Assembly: GCA_045803545.1 (NCBI GenBank)
Contig: JBJMOW010000004.1
Span: 192,001 to 256,000, forward strand
Direction of reading: 5' to 3'
Source of the DNA: Gemmatimonadaceae bacterium
Lineage (GTDB): Bacteria > Gemmatimonadota > Gemmatimonadetes > Gemmatimonadales > Gemmatimonadaceae
Length of the DNA stretch: 64,000 nt
Within the stretch, counting starts at the first letter, position 1, and each line of letters opens with the position of its first letter. Below are positions 3,573-20,938 of this stretch, in pieces. Under the pieces are notes generated by a model, which worked only from the letters and a program-made list of their open reading frames with translations, was not told the origin of the DNA and did not search any database. Position numbers and translations under genes: made by a program.

Positions 3573-5748
<2,176 letters not shown>

Positions 5749-5799
5749 CCAATATATACGCGCTGCGAGACATTCGACCTCACAATCACCGAGGTAGCT

Positions 5800-9920: not shown

Positions 9921-10142
9921 GACTGCGGACTGCGGACTGAAAAGCGCACTACCGCGCTGGTAGCTGTTAGCAGCTACCTGATAGCTATCGCTGCAGGCGA
10001 CGGGACAGGCGTCCTTCGCATTCGCACCCACAACCGGCTTTTCCTCAGGATGGTCGCGACCTGTCCCGTTGCAGGCAGCAATCAGCTAACAGCCTGCTGC
10101 TATCAGCTATCAGCGAGGTAGTTCGCATTTAAGTCCGCAGTC
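9921..10142. repeat. Long imperfect inverted repeat (arms about 80 bp) filling a convergent intergenic gap
   Basis: Left arm 9928-10009 aligns with the reverse complement of 10060-10142; termini GACTGCGGACT / AGTCCGCAGTC. Confidence 0.85.
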
Positions 10143-11572
10143 TAAGTAGACGTGAAGCGCGCCAGCACCATTTTCTCAAGTTCCTTTTTTAGCGGCTCAA
10201 GCTCGATGGTTTCAAGTACGTCGGCAGCAAAGGCGTAGGTGAGCAGAGTGCGCGCGGTATCGCGCCCGATCCCGCGGCTGTTCAGATAAAACATCGCCAC
10301 CTCGTCGAGACGGCCAACGGTTGCGCCGTGGGTGCACTTAACGTCGTCGGCGAAAATCTCCAGCTGCGGTTTGGTGTCGACGCGCGCGCTCGGTGAAAGC
10401 AGAAGGTTGTTGTTGCTCTGCTTGCCGTCGGTCTTCTGCGCTTCCGGGTGGACGTAGACCTTCCCATTGAACACGCCGTGTGAGCGTCCGTCCAGCACTC
10501 CCTTGTACACCTCGTGACTCGGGCAATTCGGTGCGATGTGCTCGATGCTCGTCTGATTGTCGATGTGCTGAGTACCGTCGGTGAGATAAAGACCGTTCAG
10601 CGTGCACGTTGCCGCGTCCCCATCGAGCGAAGTGTAGATGTTCGTGCGCGCCAGCGATCCACCGGTCGCGAATGAGAACGAGTGCAGCCGGCTGTCGCGC
10701 GCTTCGCGCGCCTGCACTGTTCCTACGTGAAAGGCCGTTTCGCTCTCGCGCTGGATTTTATAGTGATCGATGTGCGCGCCGTCGCCGAGCACCATCTCGG
10801 TAACAGCGTTGGTGAAGTACTCGCCGTCGCGCAGCGACACGTAGCTCTCGACGAACACAGCCTGCGAATGCAGGCCCGCCACAATGAGATTGCGAGGATG
10901 CGAGACTCCGTCGCCATCGGAAACGAACAGGAGATGGATCGGCCTGTCGACGATCGCGCCCGGCTGTAGCTCGACGAAGGCTCCGTCGCTGATGAATCCG
11001 GTGTTGAGCGCAGTGAAAGCGTGCTGATCGAACCTGGCAATCTTGCCGAGGTAACGCTCGACGACCTCGGATCCTGACTTGATCGCTTGCGCGAGGCTGG
11101 ACGCGCGCACACCGTCGCCCAACGCAGCGAACGATGAGAGATCTTCGGCGAAGCCGCCGTTGATGAAGACCAGAGTGTGCCAATCACTCTCGCCGAAATT
11201 GAACCGGTCGAGTAGCGACGGCGCGATTCCCGCCGGATTCGTAACATCTCCTTTCCGACGCGCCGCGCCGCGCCGCTCGTTGTCGCCGTTCGCTTCTGAA
11301 ACTGTCGACAATCTGTACGAGCGCTCTGCAATCGGCGCGACGCTGGTAAAGTGCCAGTCTTCGTTTTTCGTCGTGGGGAATCCGAGCGCTTCGAAGCGGG
11401 CGATGCCCTGCTTCCGCAAAGACTGCAGCCACTCCGGGCCGAGGGGCAGACGCGCGAACTCTTCGCGATATGTCTCGATCGAGCCGGGCTTACGCGTGGT
11501 CACACCTTCGGCCTTGGATCCTTCCCTGGCCGAATTCTCACGCGTTGATTTTCTGATTGCTGTCTCAGTCAA
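10142..11572 (-). CDS. sufD: Fe-S cluster assembly protein SufD
   Basis: FPTTKNEDWHFT, VFNGKVYV, AQKTDG, KPQLEIFADDVKCTHGATVG. TTG start overlaps the sufC stop; GTG 11503 is an alternative. Confidence 0.93.
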   Translation of the reverse strand: MTETAIRKSTRENSAREGSKAEGVTTRKPGSIETYREEFARLPLGPEWLQSLRKQGIARFEALGFPTTKNEDWHFTSVAPIAERSYRLSTVSEANGDNERRGAARRKGDVTNPAGIAPSLLDRFNFGESDWHTLVFINGGFAEDLSSFAALGDGVRASSLAQAIKSGSEVVERYLGKIARFDQHAFTALNTGFISDGAFVELQPGAIVDRPIHLLFVSDGDGVSHPRNLIVAGLHSQAVFVESYVSLRDGEYFTNAVTEMVLGDGAHIDHYKIQRESETAFHVGTVQAREARDSRLHSFSFATGGSLARTNIYTSLDGDAATCTLNGLYLTDGTQHIDNQTSIEHIAPNCPSHEVYKGVLDGRSHGVFNGKVYVHPEAQKTDGKQSNNNLLLSPSARVDTKPQLEIFADDVKCTHGATVGRLDEVAMFYLNSRGIGRDTARTLLTYAFAADVLETIELEPLKKELEKMVLARFTST

Positions 11573-12339
11573 GCCACCGCTCCGGCAGCCGCAGGAGTGG
11601 AGCTCTGAATCCAATCGTAGCCCTTCTCCTCGAGCTCGAGCGCCAGCTCTTTCCCGCCTGACTTGACGATTCTGCCATTGGCGAGAACGTGCACGAAGTC
11701 AGGAACGATGTAGTTGAGCAAACGCTGATAGTGGGTGACCACGATCGTGGCGTTGTCGGGCGAGCGAAGCTTGTTCACGCCCTGCGCGACGATGCGAAGC
11801 GCATCGATGTCGAGGCCTGAATCGGTCTCATCGAGAATCGCGAGTCGCGGCTGGAGAACCGCCATCTGAAATATTTCGTTGCGCTTCTTCTCGCCGCCCG
11901 AGAATCCCTGGTTCACTGAGCGTGACAGCATCGACTCGTCCATGTCGACGAGCTTCAGTCTGTCCTGAACGAGATCGAGAAACTCCAGCGGATCAACTTC
12001 CTCCTGGCCGTTGGCTTTGCGAATCTCGTTGTACGCGCTGCGCAGGAAGTAGGCGTTGGAAACGCCGGGGATTTCAACCGGATACTGAAACGCGAGAAAG
12101 ATTCCGTTTTGCGCGCGGACTTCAGGGTCCAGCTCCAGCAGATTCTGGCCGTTATACGTCACGCTACCGCCAGTTACTTCGTACGAAGGATTCCCCGCGA
12201 GAACCTGTGCAAGCGTGGATTTGCCGGATCCGTTCGGCCCCATCACTGCATGCACCTCGCCCGCATTCACTCGTAGCGTAATGCCGCGAAGTATTTCACG
12301 ATCGCCGATGCCGGCGTGAAGATCATTTATTACGAGCAC
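11569..12339 (-). CDS. sufC: Fe-S cluster assembly ATPase SufC
   Basis: MGPNGSGKST, AFQYPVEIPGV, FSGGEKKRNE, LDETDSGLDID. Confidence 0.96.
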   Translation of the reverse strand: MLVINDLHAGIGDREILRGITLRVNAGEVHAVMGPNGSGKSTLAQVLAGNPSYEVTGGSVTYNGQNLLELDPEVRAQNGIFLAFQYPVEIPGVSNAYFLRSAYNEIRKANGQEEVDPLEFLDLVQDRLKLVDMDESMLSRSVNQGFSGGEKKRNEIFQMAVLQPRLAILDETDSGLDIDALRIVAQGVNKLRSPDNATIVVTHYQRLLNYIVPDFVHVLANGRIVKSGGKELALELEEKGYDWIQSSTPAAAGAVA

Positions 12340-12519
12340 GAAACCATTGATTGAAAGTTGTCTGAATCGCGTAAATCGCCTGGCTGAACAACGTCCAGTT
12401 TGCCGTGAAAGGATATCCCGGGGTGCGTGGGCCGGACCGCAGCCAGTTCCACCCAGCAGAGAGTTTGTCGCGGAGCTTTCTGAGCAGCATTAGCCGGGGT
12501 TGGCGGAATTGCGTTGATC

Positions 12520-13956
12520 TTAACCGACGCTTCCTTCGAGTGTGATACCAAGCAGCTGCTGCGCCTCCACCGCGAACTCCATCGGCAGCTCCTTGAACAC
12601 TTCGCGACAGAAACCGCTCACAATCATCGACACCGCATGCTCGGCGCTCAGTCCGCGCTGCTTCAGATAGAAGATCTGATCCTCACCGATCTTTGAAGTC
12701 GACGCCTCATGTTCGAGCGTCGCCGAATTGTTCTGCACTTCGATGTACGGAAACGTATGCGCACCGCACTTGTTGCCGATCAACATCGAGTCGCACTGTG
12801 TGTAGTTTCGCGCGCCGGCCGCCTTCGGCAAAACGCGAACGAGTCCGCGATAGCTGTTGTTTCCTTCTCCGGCGGAGATTCCCTTCGAAACGATCGTCGA
12901 CTTCGTGTTTCTGCCGATGTGGATCATCTTGGTGCCGGTGTCAGCCTGCTGCTTACGGTTCACGACGGCGACCGAGTAGAACTCCCCAGTTGAATTGTCG
13001 CCCTGAAGGATCACGCTCGGATATTTCCAGGTGATGGCTGATCCTGTCTCGACCTGCGTCCAGGAAATCTTCGAGTTGACACCAGCGGCTTTGCCACGCT
13101 TGGTAACGAAATTGTAGATGCCTCCTTTGCCCTCTGCATCACCGGCGTACCAGTTCTGCACCGTCGAGTACTTCACGGTCGCGTTGTCGAGTGCGATCAA
13201 CTCCACGACCGCGGCATGCAGCTGGTTTTCGTCACGCTTGGGTGCCGTGCATCCCTCGAGGTAGCTAACTGACGCGCCTTCGTCGGCGATGATCAGTGTC
13301 CGCTCGAACTGTCCGGTGTTCTTACTGTTGATACGGAAGTAAGTCGACAGCTCCATCGGGCACTTCACGCCCTTTGGCACATACCCGAACGAACCGTCGC
13401 TGAACACCGCCGCGTTGAGGGCCGCGAAGAAGTTGTCGCTGTGCGGCACGACCGTGCCGAGATATTTCTCGACCAGGTCCGGGTGATTCTGGACCGCTTC
13501 CCCGAATGAGCAGAAGATGATGCCGAGCTTCCCCAGCTCATGTTTCATCGTGGTGCCGACAGAGACGCTGTCGAAAATCGCATCGACCGCGACACCAGCG
13601 AGCATTTTCTGCTCGTTGAGCGAGATACCGAGCTTCTGATAGGTCTTCAGCAGCTCCGGATCTACTTCGTCGAGACTCTGTAGCGGCTTGACGCTCTTCG
13701 GCGCCGAGTAGTAGACGAGGGCATTGTAGTCGATCGCGGGATACTGGACGTTGCCCCAGTGCGGCTCCTTCATCGTCAGCCAGCGACGATACGCCTTTAG
13801 CCGCCACTCCAGCATGAACGCGGGCTCGTTCTTCTTCGAGGAGATGGTGCGGATGATGTCTTCGTTGAGGCCGGGCGGGACAGTGTCCGTCTCGACGTCG
13901 GTGACGAACCCGTACGCGTATTCCCGATTGACCAGCGCCTCAATTCCCGAACTCAT
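12520..13956 (-). CDS. sufB: Fe-S cluster assembly protein SufB
   Basis: [40 protein letters not shown]; start trimmed to ATG 13956. Confidence 0.97.
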
Positions 13957-13996
13957 TCCAACTCCTTGGCGTTTCTCAACTTCCCTTCTTAGATTC

Positions 13997-14026
13997 AATC
14001 TAAAGTAATCCTGTCGGGATAGTCAA
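13997..14026 (-). promoter_or_regulatory. Putative sigma70 promoter for sufBCD
   Basis: Minus strand TTGACT-N18-TAGATT. Confidence 0.4.
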
Positions 14027-14123
14027 GCGAACGGCTGTGTATCTATCCCCTTGTCTTGTCAATACTTACGCGACATGAGGCAAGCGGCCGCCCAGTTGGC
14101 CGGACACAATCTAGAGGCACCGA

Positions 14124-14531
14124 ATGACTGGCTCCGCGCGACCTCTTTGGGGGTCGATGGATGGCAATTCCGAGTTTGAGGCCGTGGCTTCGTTGAGTGA
14201 TCTGGCGGAGGGAACGGTTTTACAACGGGTGCGATCGAGTGGTGACGCAGTCTGCCTCGTTCGCTTTCAGAACGAAATTTCCGCTCTGAGCGACATCTGC
14301 ACTCATCAGCATTTTTCAATGTCGCTTGGCGACTTGCTCGCGAATGGCACGCTGCAATGCGCATGGCACGGCGCGAGTTACGACTGCCGGACCGGTGAAG
14401 TGAAGCAGGTTCCGGCCACCAGTCCGCTGCCGGTGTTCCAGGTGCGTGTCGAAGGCGATCAGATAATGGTCGGTCCGCGCTGCAAGCGCGTCGACGGGAA
14501 GTACGAGCCATCAACTGTACGCGTTCCGTGA
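14124..14531 (+). CDS. Rieske [2Fe-2S] ferredoxin (suf-associated)
   Basis: CTH...CAWH Rieske motifs. True start could be the later ATG (MDGNSEF). Confidence 0.88.
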   Translation: MTGSARPLWGSMDGNSEFEAVASLSDLAEGTVLQRVRSSGDAVCLVRFQNEISALSDICTHQHFSMSLGDLLANGTLQCAWHGASYDCRTGEVKQVPATSPLPVFQVRVEGDQIMVGPRCKRVDGKYEPSTVRVP

Positions 14532-15742
14532 ACCTCCGCTCAGACTTTCCCATCCTCGCGCGAAATCCCGATCTCCATTACCTGGATTCGGCGGCGACAT
14601 CGCAGAAGCCGCAGGTTGTGCTCGATGCGCTTCGGGAGTTTTACGAAACGTCGAACGCCAATCCGCATCGCGGCGCGTACTCACTCTCGGTGCGCGCGAC
14701 CGAGCTCTATCATCAGTCGCGAGCGCTGATCGCCGAGTTCCTTGGCGTTCGTGATTCGGATTGTCTGATCTTCACGCGCGGCACAACCGAGGGTCTGAAT
14801 CTCGTCGCCGGCTCATGGGGCTGGGCAAACGTCGGGTCCGGCGACGAGATCGTCGTCACCGCTCTCGATCACCACGCGAACTTTGTCCCGTGGCAGGTGC
14901 TCGCTGCGCGGAAAGGTGCAAAGTTCCGCATTTGCGAGCTCACGCCGGATGAGAGAATCGATCTCGATCACCTGGCAAAACTGGTGAGTGCGCGCACGAA
15001 GGTGGTCGCGTTCAACCATGTGTCCAACGCGGTCGGCACGATCAATCCGGTCACCGATATTGTGCGGATCGCTCGCGAAAACAGCGACGCGATTCTCGTC
15101 TGCGATGGAGCGCAAAGCGCTCCCCACTTTCCGGTTTCGTTCGATTCCCTGGGCGTCGACTTCTATGCGTTCAGCGGCCACAAAATGCTGGGGCCGATGG
15201 GAATCGGCGGCTTGATCGGGACGCGCGCAATGCTGGAGTCGATGCCGCCTTATCAGACTGGCGGAGACATGATCGAGTTCGTTCACGACGATCGCACGAC
15301 CTGGAACGTGTTGCCGCACAAATTCGAGGCGGGAACACCGAATGCCGCCAACGCGGTCGCTCTCGCCGCAGCAGTCGATTATCTCGCGGGGATTGGAATG
15401 GACCGGGTGATCGCACACGAGCGTTCACTAATATCGCGCGCTCAGGAGAGGCTTTCCGCTGTCGAAGGCATTCGTATTTACGGGCCGCCGCCCGCCGAGC
15501 GCAGTGGAGTCGTCAGCTTTACGATGAACGATGTCCATCCGCACGACCTTGCGACGGTTCTCGATGGCGAGGGCGTCTGCATTCGCGCGGGACATCACTG
15601 TGCACAGCCACTCATGCGTCGCCTCGACGTGCCGGCGACGGCGCGCGCGTCATTCTACGTATACAACGATGAGAGCGACATCGACGCACTCGTTGCTGGC
15701 ATGCTCAAGGCGCGCGAGATCTTTTCTTATGCCGCGTCCTGA
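14528..15742 (+). CDS. sufS: Cysteine desulfurase SufS
   Basis: YLDSAATSQKP, FSGHKMLGP (PLP Lys), RAGHHCAQP. Confidence 0.96.
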   Translation: MNLRSDFPILARNPDLHYLDSAATSQKPQVVLDALREFYETSNANPHRGAYSLSVRATELYHQSRALIAEFLGVRDSDCLIFTRGTTEGLNLVAGSWGWANVGSGDEIVVTALDHHANFVPWQVLAARKGAKFRICELTPDERIDLDHLAKLVSARTKVVAFNHVSNAVGTINPVTDIVRIARENSDAILVCDGAQSAPHFPVSFDSLGVDFYAFSGHKMLGPMGIGGLIGTRAMLESMPPYQTGGDMIEFVHDDRTTWNVLPHKFEAGTPNAANAVALAAAVDYLAGIGMDRVIAHERSLISRAQERLSAVEGIRIYGPPPAERSGVVSFTMNDVHPHDLATVLDGEGVCIRAGHHCAQPLMRRLDVPATARASFYVYNDESDIDALVAGMLKAREIFSYAAS

Positions 15743-16172
15743 TTCCGCCGAGCTTTCGGCGCTGTACCAGGAGATGATCCTGGATCATTACCGGCGGCCG
15801 CGCAACAAAGGCACAATGGAGAACGCTGACGCCAGCGTGGAGATGAAGAACCCGCTTTGCGGGGACGAGATCGGATTGCAGGTCGTGTTCGACGGCGATC
15901 AGATCAGCGATGTGAAGTTCTCAGGACGCGGCTGCTCGATCTCCCAGGCGTCCGCCTCGATGATGACGCAACTGCTCAAGGGCAAGACACGTGCGGAGAT
16001 TGAATCCATTCGCACGCAATTTCGCGAGCTGATGCTTGGAACTACGAAGGCGAGTGACGATCTCGGGCCTTTGCGTGCGCTCTCTGGAGTCGCGCGGTTT
16101 CCAGCGCGTGTGAAATGCGCCCTCCTGGCGTGGAACGCCCTGGAGAGAGCGCTGTCAGCGAATCAAAGCTGA
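15729..16172 (+). CDS. sufU: SUF-system sulfur-transfer protein SufU
   Basis: LYQEMILDHY, NPLCGD, GCSISQASAS, RVKCALLAW; start trimmed to ATG 15729. Confidence 0.93.
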   Translation: MPRPDSAELSALYQEMILDHYRRPRNKGTMENADASVEMKNPLCGDEIGLQVVFDGDQISDVKFSGRGCSISQASASMMTQLLKGKTRAEIESIRTQFRELMLGTTKASDDLGPLRALSGVARFPARVKCALLAWNALERALSANQS

Positions 16173-17238: not shown

Positions 17239-17423
17239 AAGCGTACTTAATCACCACCGGTGTCGTTTTCGGGCTGCTGACAATCATTCACCTGTGGCAG
17301 ATGTTTTCGGAGACAGGCCTTCACGGCAACCGGGATCCATGGTTCGTCGTCATCACACTGCTCTCGGCAGGCTTCTGCATCTGGGCCTTCCAGCTACTAC
17401 GGAAGACGTCACGCACGACGTGA
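17235..17423 (+). CDS. Small 2-TM membrane protein
   Basis: ATGA overlap with the upstream gene; two hydrophobic helices. Confidence 0.65.
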   Translation: MKAYLITTGVVFGLLTIIHLWQMFSETGLHGNRDPWFVVITLLSAGFCIWAFQLLRKTSRTT

Positions 17424-18674
17424 GCGGTCGATAAGCTCGACGATCTCCTGCCGTCGAAAAAAGGTCGCCCAGCCATGCGCATCGCTGTCGTGCGCGCTGT
17501 CGCGAATGGTGGAGTCCGCGCCCGCCTCGAGCAGTGCGCGCGCGACATCGACGTGACCTGACAGCACGGCCAGATGTAGAGGAGTAAGCATCGAACCCCA
17601 GTGATTCCAGAGCCCGTCTGGATTCGCACCTCGGGTCAGGAGCCATCTGACAGCGGCGATGTTTCCACGTTTGGCCATCAGATGCAGTACGCCGTCCCTG
17701 TTGAGCGTTGACGGGTCGCTTTCCAGGATCTCCGCGGCAGCCTGTAGATCCCCGAGCCCGAGTGCCACGGTCAAGGTCGGTCCGACTCGCTCACGCATTG
17801 CCCTCAGTACCGGAGCGTCGACGTCGGGCTCGGTTGCATAGGCGACGGCTGTGAAACCGGATGCATCGGTCGCCAATGGATCTGCTCCAAGCTCCAGCAG
17901 TAACTCAATCATCCCTCGCAGCTGTGCGTGGACGGCAAAATGGAGCGGCAGCCGAAAATTTTCGTTGTGGCTCTGCGGCCGTCTGAGTTGCGCCGGGTCG
18001 TGCGCAACGATGCGACGAACTTCATCCGCATCGTTCAGCGCCATCGCCGAGTAGATATGGTGACGTGCGCCCCGACTGACGAGGAAGTCGGCGATCGCGC
18101 GACGCGCGGCATTGTCGACGACTTCCCAACCCGTTGCCCAGCCAATCACCTGGAGCGCGTGATCGTCGCCCTCACCGATGACGTCGCCGCCGGCGTCAGC
18201 GAGTCTCCGCACTATCTCGAAATGACCCGCCGCCGCCGCCCAATGCATCGCGTAGGTATTGTCGCCTTTTTCTCGGGTGTTCGGATCGAGCCCGCGATCG
18301 AGCAGTAGGTCAACGACATCGAGGTGACCGTTGTGTGCGCCGACGTGAAGCAGAGTGTGCTCGTAAGGCTGGTTGCGCGCGTAGAGCTTTTCGGGATGCG
18401 CCTCGAGCAGCGAGCGCAGCTTGTCCGCGTCGCCGCTGCGCGCGGCAGCGAACAGCTGGCCATCCAGAGTCAGGGAATCGACATGCGCTTTCAGAGCGCG
18501 CCAACTGGGAAAGCCATACCGGCGTGCTACGTCGAGTTGGGCTTCGGCCAGTTTTGCCCTGGAGCTCGTTTTACGAATCTCTTGCAGGCGTTGCTTCGCC
18601 TGCTTGCGAAGCCATTCGAGATTCGGCGTGGCCGGCAAGCTGAGCGCGCCGGACTCGGAGGTCTGCTCGGACAT
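17409..18674 (-). CDS. Ankyrin-repeat protein with N-terminal LP..PNLE.LRKQAK...A.L.VA..YGF.SW module
   Basis: Multiple TLLH/TPLH..A..G ankyrin repeats; start trimmed to ATG 18674 behind an AGGAAAGAAGG SD. Confidence 0.9.
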   Translation of the reverse strand: MSEQTSESGALSLPATPNLEWLRKQAKQRLQEIRKTSSRAKLAEAQLDVARRYGFPSWRALKAHVDSLTLDGQLFAAARSGDADKLRSLLEAHPEKLYARNQPYEHTLLHVGAHNGHLDVVDLLLDRGLDPNTREKGDNTYAMHWAAAAGHFEIVRRLADAGGDVIGEGDDHALQVIGWATGWEVVDNAARRAIADFLVSRGARHHIYSAMALNDADEVRRIVAHDPAQLRRPQSHNENFRLPLHFAVHAQLRGMIELLLELGADPLATDASGFTAVAYATEPDVDAPVLRAMRERVGPTLTVALGLGDLQAAAEILESDPSTLNRDGVLHLMAKRGNIAAVRWLLTRGANPDGLWNHWGSMLTPLHLAVLSGHVDVARALLEAGADSTIRDSAHDSDAHGWATFFRRQEIVELIDRSRRA

Positions 18675-18820
18675 AGGGCACCTTCTTTCCTTTGAAAGAG
18701 CGAGCTCTTTCGTCGCGCCCGATGTCCGCATTGCGGGCGAGGAATGAAGGTAATGGCGATAAACTGTAGAAGTGGGTTGAACCCTTTACGCGGACCGTCG
18801 GCCGCCCCTCGGCCCTGACC
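18675..18820 (-). promoter_or_regulatory. Candidate structured 5' leader RNA of the ankyrin gene
   Basis: Stems GTCCGCGT/ATGCGGAC, GGGT-TCA-ACCC, GAAAGAG/CTCTTTC and AGGGC/GCCCT; anti-SD CCTTCATTCCT is 10/11 complementary to the SD region. Confidence 0.55.
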
Positions 18821-18889
18821 GAATCTGAGTTCAGCTAGCGCCGATGGCAACCAGCCTTGACGGCGAAAACCAGACACTACATCGTGAAG

Positions 18890-19045
18890 GCGGCGTCGAA
18901 TCCGCGCCCAACCTCTTGAGACTCCGCCCGGCCGGAGTCCGTAGCGAGGCAAAGGGGGGCAAACTCCCGGATTGATCGTCAGTCCTTTGCGTCACCGCGG
19001 CGCGCTGCTGGGAGAGCACCGTGGTGTGTCCAAAGGAGATTGACG
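18890..19045 (+). promoter_or_regulatory. Candidate structured 5' leader RNA (three hairpins plus loop-loop pairing)
   Basis: GACTCCG/CGGAGTC, GCAAAGGG/TCCTTTGC, CACCGCGG/CCGTGGTG; loops CTCCCGG and CTGGGAG are complementary; TTGACG -35-like element at 18857. Confidence 0.55.
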
Positions 19046-19714
19046 ATGACTTCCAACAAGGATTTCAAGCGCCTCGTTCGCGCTCGCATGAAGAAGACCG
19101 GTGAAGCGTACACCACCGCCCGGTCGAACGTCCTCAAGAAACCCAAGAAAAACACGGCGATCGATTACGCCGGGCTTGCCGGCATGAGTGACTCCGTGAT
19201 CGAGGAGAAAACTGGCCGCAATTGGGAGCGCTGGGTTAAAGCGCTCGATCACGATGGCGCCGAGAAAATGCCGCATGGTGAGATCGCTGCGCTGGTGAAA
19301 AAAACTTACAAGGTCGGCGAGTGGTGGTCGCAGACCGTGACCGTTGGCTACGAGCGCATCAAAGGACTTCGTGCCAAAGGTCAGCGGCGCGACGGGAGCT
19401 ATGAGGCGAGTAAGTCTCGAACCTTCGACGTGCCGGTCAAAACTCTGTTCGCGGCGTGGGCAGACGGTGTTACCCGCCGGCGCTGGTTGAGTGGAGCGAC
19501 AGTGCGAATTCGCACTGCCACCGAACCAAAGTCAATGCGCCTCGACTGGAACGAATCCATTGTTGCCGTTGGATTCGCGCCGAAAGGAAGCTCCCGGAGC
19601 TCCGTTGCGGTCCAGCACACCAAGCTGCCCGATCGTGAAACAGCTAAGGAGCTGAAGGAATACTGGGCGGCACGTCTCGACGCACTCGGCAATGTGCTCG
19701 CCAGGCGATCATAG
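19046..19714 (+). CDS. Protein with basic N-terminal KRLVRARMKKTGEAYTTAR module, DUF4287-like middle and SRPBCC/AHSA1-like C-terminus
   Basis: AAGGAG SD 7 nt before ATG 19046; EEKTGRNWERW...HGEIA...WWSQTV; SKSRTFDVPVKTLFAAWAD...LKEYWAARLDAL. Confidence 0.8.
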   Translation: MTSNKDFKRLVRARMKKTGEAYTTARSNVLKKPKKNTAIDYAGLAGMSDSVIEEKTGRNWERWVKALDHDGAEKMPHGEIAALVKKTYKVGEWWSQTVTVGYERIKGLRAKGQRRDGSYEASKSRTFDVPVKTLFAAWADGVTRRRWLSGATVRIRTATEPKSMRLDWNESIVAVGFAPKGSSRSSVAVQHTKLPDRETAKELKEYWAARLDALGNVLARRS

Positions 19715-19822
19715 CTGAAGGCGGAGCCGTTGGCTGCATGAAGGTGGCCGGCAACAGAAACGATTCTCCCGAGCCTCATTCACTCATGCTAGAATGAGGC
19801 TCGGATCCCTCCGGCTATCAGT

Positions 19823-20938
19823 ATGAGCATAAGCCACAACCTGGCATGGACCGCGACACGCGAGGACTACGAGCGCGAAGCGGCAGCGTTGTACGATGCG
19901 CTGCAAGCTCGCCAGGACTCGGCGCTGTGGAATTTCAAATGGATGCATCCGCATTTTCGCGGCAAGACCGTCACCGACGTCGATCCAACCATTCTCGACC
20001 TCGACGATGCGCGACTCGTCGTCGCCCATGAGTATGGGTTCCCGGCGTGGTTCAATCTCATGAAATTCGCGGACGACGTTGGACAGGACGGGCAGCCAGC
20101 ACAGTTCGAGCGTGCGGTCGACGCTGTCGTGTCAGGTGACATCGCTACGCTCAGAGCGATGATTGGCGATGATCCGCAGCTGGTTCATCGGAGATCGGCA
20201 CGCTTTCACCGCGCAACGCTGCTGCACTATATCGCGGCAAACGGAGTAGAAGGCGTCCGCCAGAAAACTCCTCCCAATGCCATGGAAGTCGCGCGGACGT
20301 TACTGGACGCCGGGGCGGATCCAGACGCGCTTGCGATGATGTACGACAACCTGTGCACCACGATGAGCATGCTGGTCTCCAGTGCGCACCCCGCCGGTGC
20401 CGGACTACAGGCAGATCTCGCCGAGCTGCTGTTGGATTACGGCGCAAAGCACAACGGGCCGGGATCAGAGTGGCAATCCGACATCATGACCGCGCTGGTG
20501 TTCGGATACTGGAAAACGGCGGACCGCTTGGCGAAGCGTGGTGCCCCGGCCGACAATCTTCCCACGGCTGCGGGACTCGGCCGCGTCGACGAAGCGACCC
20601 AGCTACTTCCGGCAGCGGATGCACGAAGCCGACATATCGCACTCGCGCTCGCCGCGCAGCACGGCCATGCCAACGTCGTACGAGTTCTGCTCGACGCGGG
20701 TGAGGACCCCAATCGATTCTGCCCGGAGGGGTTTCACTCCCACGCGACTCCGTTGCACAACGCGATTTCCGCCGGCCGGGATGACGTCGTCAAGCTGCTG
20801 CTGGATCGCGGGGCGCGCACGGACATCAGGGATACGATTTTCGACGGGACGCCGCTCGATTGGGCGGTCTACTGCAAGAAGCCGGAAATCGTCGAAGAAC
20901 TACGCAACCGCGGAGCTCCTACCAGCAACGCAGGGTAA
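19823..20938 (+). CDS. Ankyrin-repeat protein with N-terminal A.LVVA.EYGF..W module
   Basis: ATLLHY, ALALAAQHGH, ATPLHNA and GTPLDWA ankyrin motifs. Confidence 0.88.
   Translation: MSISHNLAWTATREDYEREAAALYDALQARQDSALWNFKWMHPHFRGKTVTDVDPTILDLDDARLVVAHEYGFPAWFNLMKFADDVGQDGQPAQFERAVDAVVSGDIATLRAMIGDDPQLVHRRSARFHRATLLHYIAANGVEGVRQKTPPNAMEVARTLLDAGADPDALAMMYDNLCTTMSMLVSSAHPAGAGLQADLAELLLDYGAKHNGPGSEWQSDIMTALVFGYWKTADRLAKRGAPADNLPTAAGLGRVDEATQLLPAADARSRHIALALAAQHGHANVVRVLLDAGEDPNRFCPEGFHSHATPLHNAISAGRDDVVKLLLDRGARTDIRDTIFDGTPLDWAVYCKKPEIVEELRNRGAPTSNAG

Follow-up and report, generated by a model that had tools for sequence, protein, structure and literature searches.

We analysed a 64,000-nucleotide (nt) stretch of contig JBJMOW010000004.1 from a Gemmatimonadaceae bacterium (assembly GCA_045803545.1, positions 192,001 to 256,000), referred to below as the window, in which two divergent genes, A and B, each open with a small N-terminal module and are each preceded by a predicted structured leader RNA, with a third gene, C, lying downstream of B. 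The original prediction, made from the sequence alone, had located these genes and their motifs correctly, and the three peptides that it quoted are all present. In window coordinates, the genes and modules are as follows.

17409..18674, minus strand: gene A, an ankyrin-repeat protein of 421 amino acids (aa) with an N-terminal A module (open reading frame and domain scan).
18465..18641, minus strand: A module, approximately residues 12-70, three predicted helices with a basic first helix (model pLDDT, predicted local distance difference test, 85).
19046..19714, plus strand: gene B, 222 aa, a B module followed by DUF4287-like and SRPBCC/AHSA1-like domains (domain scan).
19046..19141, plus strand: B module, residues 1-32, a predicted two-helix hairpin (model pLDDT 81).
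19823..20938, plus strand: gene C, a leaderless ankyrin protein of 371 aa whose A-type module is degenerate and acidic (domain scan, hhalign and covariance model, CM).

The start of gene A was placed at the ATG at 18674, which is linked to a Shine-Dalgarno (SD) sequence; an alternative, longer start at the ATG at 18731 falls within the leader. The domain matches of gene B, to DUF4287 (E 8e-6) and AHSA1/SRPBCC (E 2e-4), each lie slightly below the Pfam cut-off. The start codons of genes A and B are separated by 371 nt (18675-19045), a gap first described as unusually long for the window and as filled almost entirely by two heavily base-paired leaders. It is among the longer gaps, although not the longest, since seven exceed 400 nt in a crude count of open reading frames that missed some of them. 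It does hold two leaders, of ~140 nt (type A) and ~155 nt (type B), but also ~75 nt of DNA with two likely promoters, and the pairing seen by single-sequence folding exceeds that of shuffles by a modest margin only (z -2.64 on the A side and -1.70 on the B side). The real support for the leader structure is comparative, not single-sequence folding. The predicted elements of the type A leader are the following.

18675..18814, minus strand: type A leader RNA, ~140 nt (CM R1 matches 18696-18823 at 81.5 bits; this copy is in the training set).
18800..18814, minus strand: hairpin P1, with a purine loop (18809-18805) that forms the 5' strand of a pseudoknot, PK1.
18787..18799, minus strand: P2, a short stem whose 7-nt loop (18796-18790) is the 5' strand of a loop-loop (kissing) interaction.
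18768..18786, minus strand: A-rich joint, hairpin P3 (18784-18774) and the 3' strand of PK1 (18772-18770), which in this copy pairs partly through G-U.
18680..18751, minus strand: P4, with the anti-SD strand at 18751-18740 and the SD region at 18693-18680.
18738-18717, minus strand: inner stem of P4, whose loop carries the kissing hexamer (18729-18724).
18711-18694, minus strand: hairpin of 8 bp inserted in the 3' strand of P4.

The P4 insert (18694-18711) is shared with locus L220, and other inserts occur at the same site in L205, L209 and L230. The predicted elements of the type B leader are as follows.

18892..19045, plus strand: type B leader RNA, ~155 nt (CM R2 matches 18885-19048 at 91.6 bits, a training copy; blastn to relatives).
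18892..18908, plus strand: P1, whose loop bases 18900-18903 pair with 18969-18972 (PK1).
18912..18949, plus strand: P2, with a lower stem (18912-18915/18946-18949) and an upper stem (18920-18926/18933-18939).
18927-18932, plus strand: P2 loop, the 5' strand of the kiss.
18950..18972, plus strand: A-rich joint, hairpin P3 (18954-18968) and the 3' strand of PK1 (18969-18972).
18983..19038, plus strand: P4, in which the SD (19035-19038) is buried and whose loop hexamer (19007-19012) kisses the P2 loop.

As seen, the A and B leaders have a common predicted layout, which is backed by covariation: three 5' hairpins, a pseudoknot (PK1) in which loop 1 pairs beside P3, on its flank, and a kiss from the P2 loop to a 3' hairpin that buries the SD. 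For type A, this was evaluated in an alignment (A1) of 62 leaders chosen by a core motif from 74 loci with sufficient upstream DNA, a selection biased toward typical members. P1 to P4 and the kiss were paired in 82.5% of the cells, compared with 73.9% in shuffles (0/500) and 40-49% for slid helices. The three variable pairs of the kiss had undergone 5, 3 and 3 double changes and remained paired in 62/62, 62/62 and 61/62 sequences; double changes were also found in all eight outer pairs of P4 (8/8), and P1 was paired in only 57%. A tree-aware G-test, which approximates R-scape with 12 null sets on CM-fitted alignments, placed its top type A pairs in P3, P4, P2 and P1 (null E <=0.08), followed by the kiss and PK1 (each ~3). 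The columns of the type A PK1 were paired in 70, 74 and 68 of 75 sequences.

For type B, the same test recovered P2, P3 and the loop-4 stem, and PK1 emerged without having been modelled (columns 16-85, null E ~0.08, and 15-86, ~0.17; paired in 80 and 68 of 88 sequences). The conserved unpaired columns 26 and 65 covary as well, from A/A to G/G. RNAalifold on a MAFFT alignment of the B leaders returned P2 and P3 only, with two subtypes out of register. The B kiss was assessed free of alignment, by pairing the P2 apex against a fixed window before the start codon; 91 of 117 candidates could be parsed, the other 26 being divergent leaders. At least 6 Watson-Crick pairs were found in 73 of the 91 parsed leaders and at least 7 in 42, with more than 10 partner sequences, whereas swapping partner classes left 7-pair matches in 100/1232 combinations (8%). 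A separate count gave 58/88 against a 22% control. In many B leaders, both kissing loops are 7 nt long; the window copy has a kiss of 6 pairs, one of them G-U, and scored 4 in the strict Watson-Crick test. The predicted pairing of the SD was 0.84 in 144 A leaders, compared with 0.67 in shuffled upstream sequence, and 0.73 in 122 B leaders, compared with 0.64.

The leaders are real and widespread, and they are uncatalogued in Rfam. In agreement with the expectation that neither would match a characterised family, no Rfam 15 family reached its gathering cut-off on either leader of the window, and a scan of 18500-19900 by E-value returned three chance-level rows only. Over 50 related loci, Rfam had no match for A, B or Glyoxalase_8-type leaders (see below), and one locus alone, L456, matched (COG3860). 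The sole Rfam match of the window is a thiamine pyrophosphate (TPP) riboswitch at 5632-5750 (minus strand, 61.5 bits). We found no description of the leaders or modules in a literature search that did not extend to the motif catalogues supplementing PMC5737381 and PMC11109978; neither ankyrin nor COG3860 is mentioned in the available portion of the main text of PMC5737381, and the one supplement of PMC8632094 searched gave no hits.

To relate the RNA to the protein, homologues were gathered with degenerate protein-module patterns, without use of the RNA. The search yielded at least 120 B genome loci, at least 120 A metagenome loci and 23 + 1 viral loci, and the upstream DNA was strongly conserved in both the A and the B sets. 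The original prediction held that a conserved, covarying upstream structure should accompany the module rather than the body of the protein, and this was borne out in both directions. R1 matched upstream of 72 of the 80 A loci searched (80 of at least 120), including 18/26 outside the training set, and R2 upstream of 106 of the 120 listed B loci (86/99 and 20/21), including 30/43 held out in the first of these sets. Among the misses are chance matches to the pattern, loci at contig ends and divergent subtypes. One such subtype of the B leader, at L123, L135, L150, L173, L105 and L073, escapes model R2 and precedes KH, TPR and unclassified bodies; no CM match was obtained for the KH and TPR bodies behind B modules.

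Starting instead from the RNA in 150 genomes of the phylum, the matching module lay directly downstream of 63/69 R1 and 21/22 R2 matches, own copies included. Of the six R1 exceptions, two lie at contig ends where a module begins, one retains half a module after a deletion, two are 5'-half RNAs and one is a weak match. Only 4 of the 91 matches lacked any trace of a module. Cross-type pairing was not seen among 341 leader matches from partly redundant loci (0/341). We also noted two rearranged copies. In L383 (114-185), the 5' half of an A leader is joined to a pilC-like reading frame, probably by rearrangement or an assembly join. In L110 (444-577), a near-exact copy of the 5' half of a B leader lies 870 nt upstream of an intact leader and precedes small genes that look AbrB-like and PIN-like by eye, as though inserted into the leader.

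The bodies that follow the modules are diverse. A scan of 38 and 11 representatives placed many ankyrin subfamilies, WD40, DUF5655 with DUF5990, TIGR03067 and VOC domains after A modules. DUF4287/SRPBCC domains account for 84 of 288 clustered entries after B modules and BtrH_N with DUF4872 for 16, alongside DUF2087, LCM methyltransferase and HEAT domains. No common metabolite or pathway was found among these downstream bodies, which argues against a metabolite ligand. B loci with a leader occur in what we take to be Gemmatimonadota, Actinomycetota, Chloroflexota, Acidobacteriota, Myxococcota, Krumholzibacteriota and Pseudomonadota. Four A-module matches lie in annotated plasmid records, while annotated phages gave none for the B module. 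One actinobacterial genome, G296 (loci L063, L410 and L412-L414), carries four A cassettes and one B with differing kissing sequences, a natural test of orthogonality. Two soil metatranscriptomes (X1 and X2) contained only short contigs covering leaders, with a 5-6% word share, and were uninformative on strand, ends or level.

Blastn with the whole gap matched 19 of 61 genomes, our own counted; the A half and the B half matched separate loci, and none of 23 other loci had both. Since the two halves are found in different loci, the window holds two independent units placed back to back, and a conserved divergent A-B pair is ruled out (0/23 related loci). The three genes had been proposed to form one system; instead, A and B are separate cassettes that are adjacent by chance. 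Genes B and C are also neighbours in loci L002 and L010. No additional copies were found in the own genome.

The two modules were also compared with each other and with known families. Within 26 residues, the B module conserves four K/R positions and one Tyr (invariant residues R12, R14, M15, T18, G19, E20, Y22 and A25); it matches 4729 protein clusters at 50% identity and begins at residue 1 in 126 of the 150 best matches. It has no Pfam or PHROG family, and neither module was assigned to a family in PHROGs or NCBIfam. A single superfamily of A and B modules, as first suggested, had a good register by eye and was rejected by hhalign (0.5%). Searches of the PDB by sequence and fold, and of the ESM Atlas, returned nothing significant, generic helical matches only.

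Basic residues of the A module track the leader. The net charge of the first helix averages +1.65 in 170 leader-linked A modules and -0.8 in five internal second copies; two or three of three basic positions of helix 1 are kept in 146/168 leader-linked modules and are lost in the internal second copies and in gene C. In gene C, residues 57-86 match the second half of the A module only (hhalign 93.8%) and the first helix is acidic. Gene C, too, had been expected to carry a module reading its own leader, as had A and B, where module and leader are indeed found; gene C has half a module and no A-type leader (best CM score 0.2 bits). Elsewhere, the same ankyrin body occurs behind a leader of its own and with a basic helix, whereas here it is leaderless with an acidic one. 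Among 23 viral B loci, nine have a leader match, all on proteins of at least 128 aa, and two are weak pattern matches. Leaderless short B-module proteins are encoded on phage contigs L296-L300, L303, L306-L308, L311, L314 and L317.

Relatives of the A module lead to a third leader. Of 43 A modules, 34 weakly match positions 5-55 of Pfam Glyoxalase_8 (PF20066; best E 1e-5), below the cut-off of 23.7 bits (protein A, 13.6 bits; A module alone, 18.4). That family is named for glyoxalase and its description holds no RNA role. At Glyoxalase_8 loci from 201 Pseudomonadota genomes, 16/18 have a related leader that comprises P1 and a hexamer whose complement lies in a 3' hairpin, and the kiss is a perfect 6 bp in 11/16, compared with 25/192 after swapping; CM R1 matches these leaders weakly at best (E 0.016). 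At L183, L213 and L231, A modules fused to VOC follow a shortened leader in which P1, P3 and a longer PK1 are retained and the kiss is absent. One of the two Glyoxalase_8 loci without the third leader, L456, carries the COG3860 RNA motif (RF02940, 60.9 bits). The gene downstream has, at its N-terminus, weak similarity to the N-terminal part of Glyoxalase_8 (E 2.7e-4) and to the final helices of the A module (hhalign 4%). The COG3860 motif, which Rfam classes as cis-regulatory, is 54 nt long, and by eye its loop 1 can pair with the 3' end in the manner of PK1, but the Rfam model has neither kiss nor SD hairpin and matched neither the window leaders, even at E up to 10, nor 49 other loci. DUF2087, one of the bodies behind B modules, is presumably the same family as COG3860. 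A nucleic-acid binding role for DUF2087 is proposed in part of PMC7113386. The COG3860 motif may be a distant cousin of the leaders, a lead only.

Several known systems share features with the leaders. S15 at rpsO and S4 at the alpha operon bind pseudoknotted leaders that lie over the initiation region of their own mRNAs. The leaders described here resemble these operators in their predicted pseudoknotted structure over the initiation region, a conserved structure overlaps the SD, and the RNA is found with the gene of a candidate binding protein; S15 and S4, however, mimic their rRNA sites, whereas the modules described here are small, dedicated and joined to unrelated bodies, and Rfam gives no match. 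The ZTP (pfl) riboswitch (RF01750) consists of a 5' domain, a variable spacer and a 3' hairpin whose loop pairs back. Our leaders likewise have a spacer-linked 3' hairpin with a back-pairing loop, but did not match in Rfam at the gathering or E-value level, and the downstream genes are not of purine or folate metabolism. Rop, a free protein, acts on two separate RNAs in the control of replication. The B system recalls it in combining a predicted helical-hairpin module with kissing loops, as ColE1 Rop is a helical hairpin that binds an RNA kissing complex (reported in part of PMC2602780); sequence and fold searches with the modules did not match Rop.

ANTAR proteins (AmiR, NasR and EutV; PF03861) likewise join a small helical RNA-binding domain to varied sensors and act on mRNA leaders. 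Unlike the own-leader control proposed here, ANTAR acts in trans on other genes, and its target, two small hairpins with six-base loops bearing A at position 1 and G at position 4 (as described in part of PMC3369931), is absent from the A and B consensus structures. Homology was rejected: PF03861 was found in 0/43 A and 0/60 B module sequences, with hhalign at 1.9% and 0.7%. In the fold search, the B model placed four ANTAR proteins in the top 21 of 48161 chains (Z 3.8-4.1), tied with UBA and unrelated folds. The system would function in the manner of an autogenous translational operator or of an ANTAR-type RNA regulator but, by the tests run, belongs to neither.

The remaining features of the locus are the likely promoters, an inverted repeat and the genes farther away.

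-35 at 18850-18845 and -10 at 18827-18822, 17-nt spacer, minus strand: likely sigma-70-type promoter of gene A (by eye and from homologue alignments).
-35 at 18857-18862 and -10 at 18880-18885, 17-nt spacer, plus strand: likely sigma-70-type promoter of gene B (conserved A/T columns upstream of P1).
19768..19803, plus strand: perfect inverted repeat of 13 bp in the spacer between genes B and C, directly before gene C, without a U tail.

In a promoter scan, the gene A promoter scored under the threshold and the gene B promoter was absent from the list. By CM test, the inverted repeat is not a member of the leader families; it may act as a stabilising hairpin or as an operator for a protein. Positions 10142-16172 hold what we take, by eye, to be Suf-type iron-sulfur cluster genes (SufB/C/D-, SufS- and SufU-like).

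Taken together, these observations make us lean, with little more than even confidence, toward the leader and its adjoining module being a portable unit of autoregulation: the module is predicted to bind its own leader and keep the SD shut. The 5' domain (P1, P2, P3 and PK1) would be the protein-binding operator, and the kiss would relay its folding state to the SD hairpin. A bound module would stabilise the closed form and give negative feedback, and the fused body (ankyrin, SRPBCC, BtrH, VOC or others) may be titrated by its own partner or ligand, thereby relieving repression. Promoter, leader and module would form a contiguous cassette of ~350 bp that recombination places before new genes. 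Several observations weigh against this autoregulatory reading. The chief weakness is that leader and module adjoin on the DNA, so that domain shuffling would keep both together even without binding, and their co-occurrence is no proof of contact. The modules of types A and B have no detectable homology despite the common RNA layout, which also fits a shared third factor, and the fold search returned no RNA-binding domain at a significant score (best Z 4.4 and 4.6). In the tree-aware test, the kiss columns (null E ~2-4) and the type A PK1 (~3) are individually nonsignificant, and the margin of SD occlusion over the shuffled control is modest in B. Of six A modules scored as lacking a leader, four retain all three basic residues, two of the four being glyoxalase-type genes with a divergent 5' core, and twelve short phage proteins (37-135 aa), mostly B module, keep the basic residues with no leader match. 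The sign of control could also be positive.

The leaders might instead be riboswitch-like sensors of small molecules or ions, or bind a common host factor, with the modules as passengers that serve oligomerisation, localisation or degradation and travel along through their proximity to the leader. A double pseudoknot with conserved A-rich joints and a spacer-linked 3' hairpin is riboswitch-like, a complex conserved fold comes with an expression platform, a single layout serves unrelated modules, and the covariation of B columns 26 and 65 concerns conserved unpaired positions. We nevertheless consider this reading unlikely, as the downstream bodies have no common pathway, a free riboswitch would be expected before genes without a module as well (only 4/91 such matches were found), and gene C and the second copies have lost basic residues together with the leader. 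Alternatively, the module could bind to activate, by capturing the P2 loop or breaking the kiss and so freeing the SD, resulting in positive feedback or a switch. Known pseudoknotted leaders that bind proteins are mostly repressive, which counts against activation, and self-activation would require a seed; moreover, the glyoxalase-type A variants (L183, L213 and L231) retain the 5' core, as judged by eye, and no longer have the kiss or most of the 3' hairpin. In the default predicted fold the SD is buried from the outset, which would call for an opener, and ANTAR proteins act positively in some systems (part of PMC3369931); on balance, we judge activation improbable.

We give slightly less credence still to a stable ribonucleoprotein (RNP), in which the nascent module would capture its own leader, RNA and body would act together on another target, and SD occlusion would be a side effect. 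The nearly constant position of the module at the extreme N-terminus (the 126 of 150 best B matches) fits such a particle, but cassette shuffling would produce it as well. A simple operator would not need so elaborate an RNA, and the short contigs from the two soil RNA libraries cover leaders, a weak point in its favour; the 3' hairpin, however, contains the SD, so that the RNA is built into translation initiation, and we saw no terminator or processing site that would free it.

Beyond the autoregulatory unit itself, it is possible, although doubtful, that the leaders belong to a superfamily of plug-in, one-component regulators acting at the RNA level. A single double-pseudoknot architecture would then exist in at least three sequence classes, and perhaps in COG3860 as well, each read by a tiny N-terminal domain of its own and carried as a 350-bp cassette on thousands of unrelated proteins, with the leaderless B modules of phages acting on host leaders in trans. 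Should the RNA bind a small molecule instead, the leaders would represent a widespread new riboswitch class. If the autoregulatory reading is right, the finding would add two uncatalogued families of RNA-binding domains and two or three complex RNA families across at least seven phyla, and may supply a partner for the orphan COG3860 motif. It would also provide orthogonal protein-RNA pairs of 30-60 residues for dosage control, and would explain why ankyrin, BtrH-like and glyoxalase proteins of soil bacteria commonly have an unannotated extension at the N-terminus.

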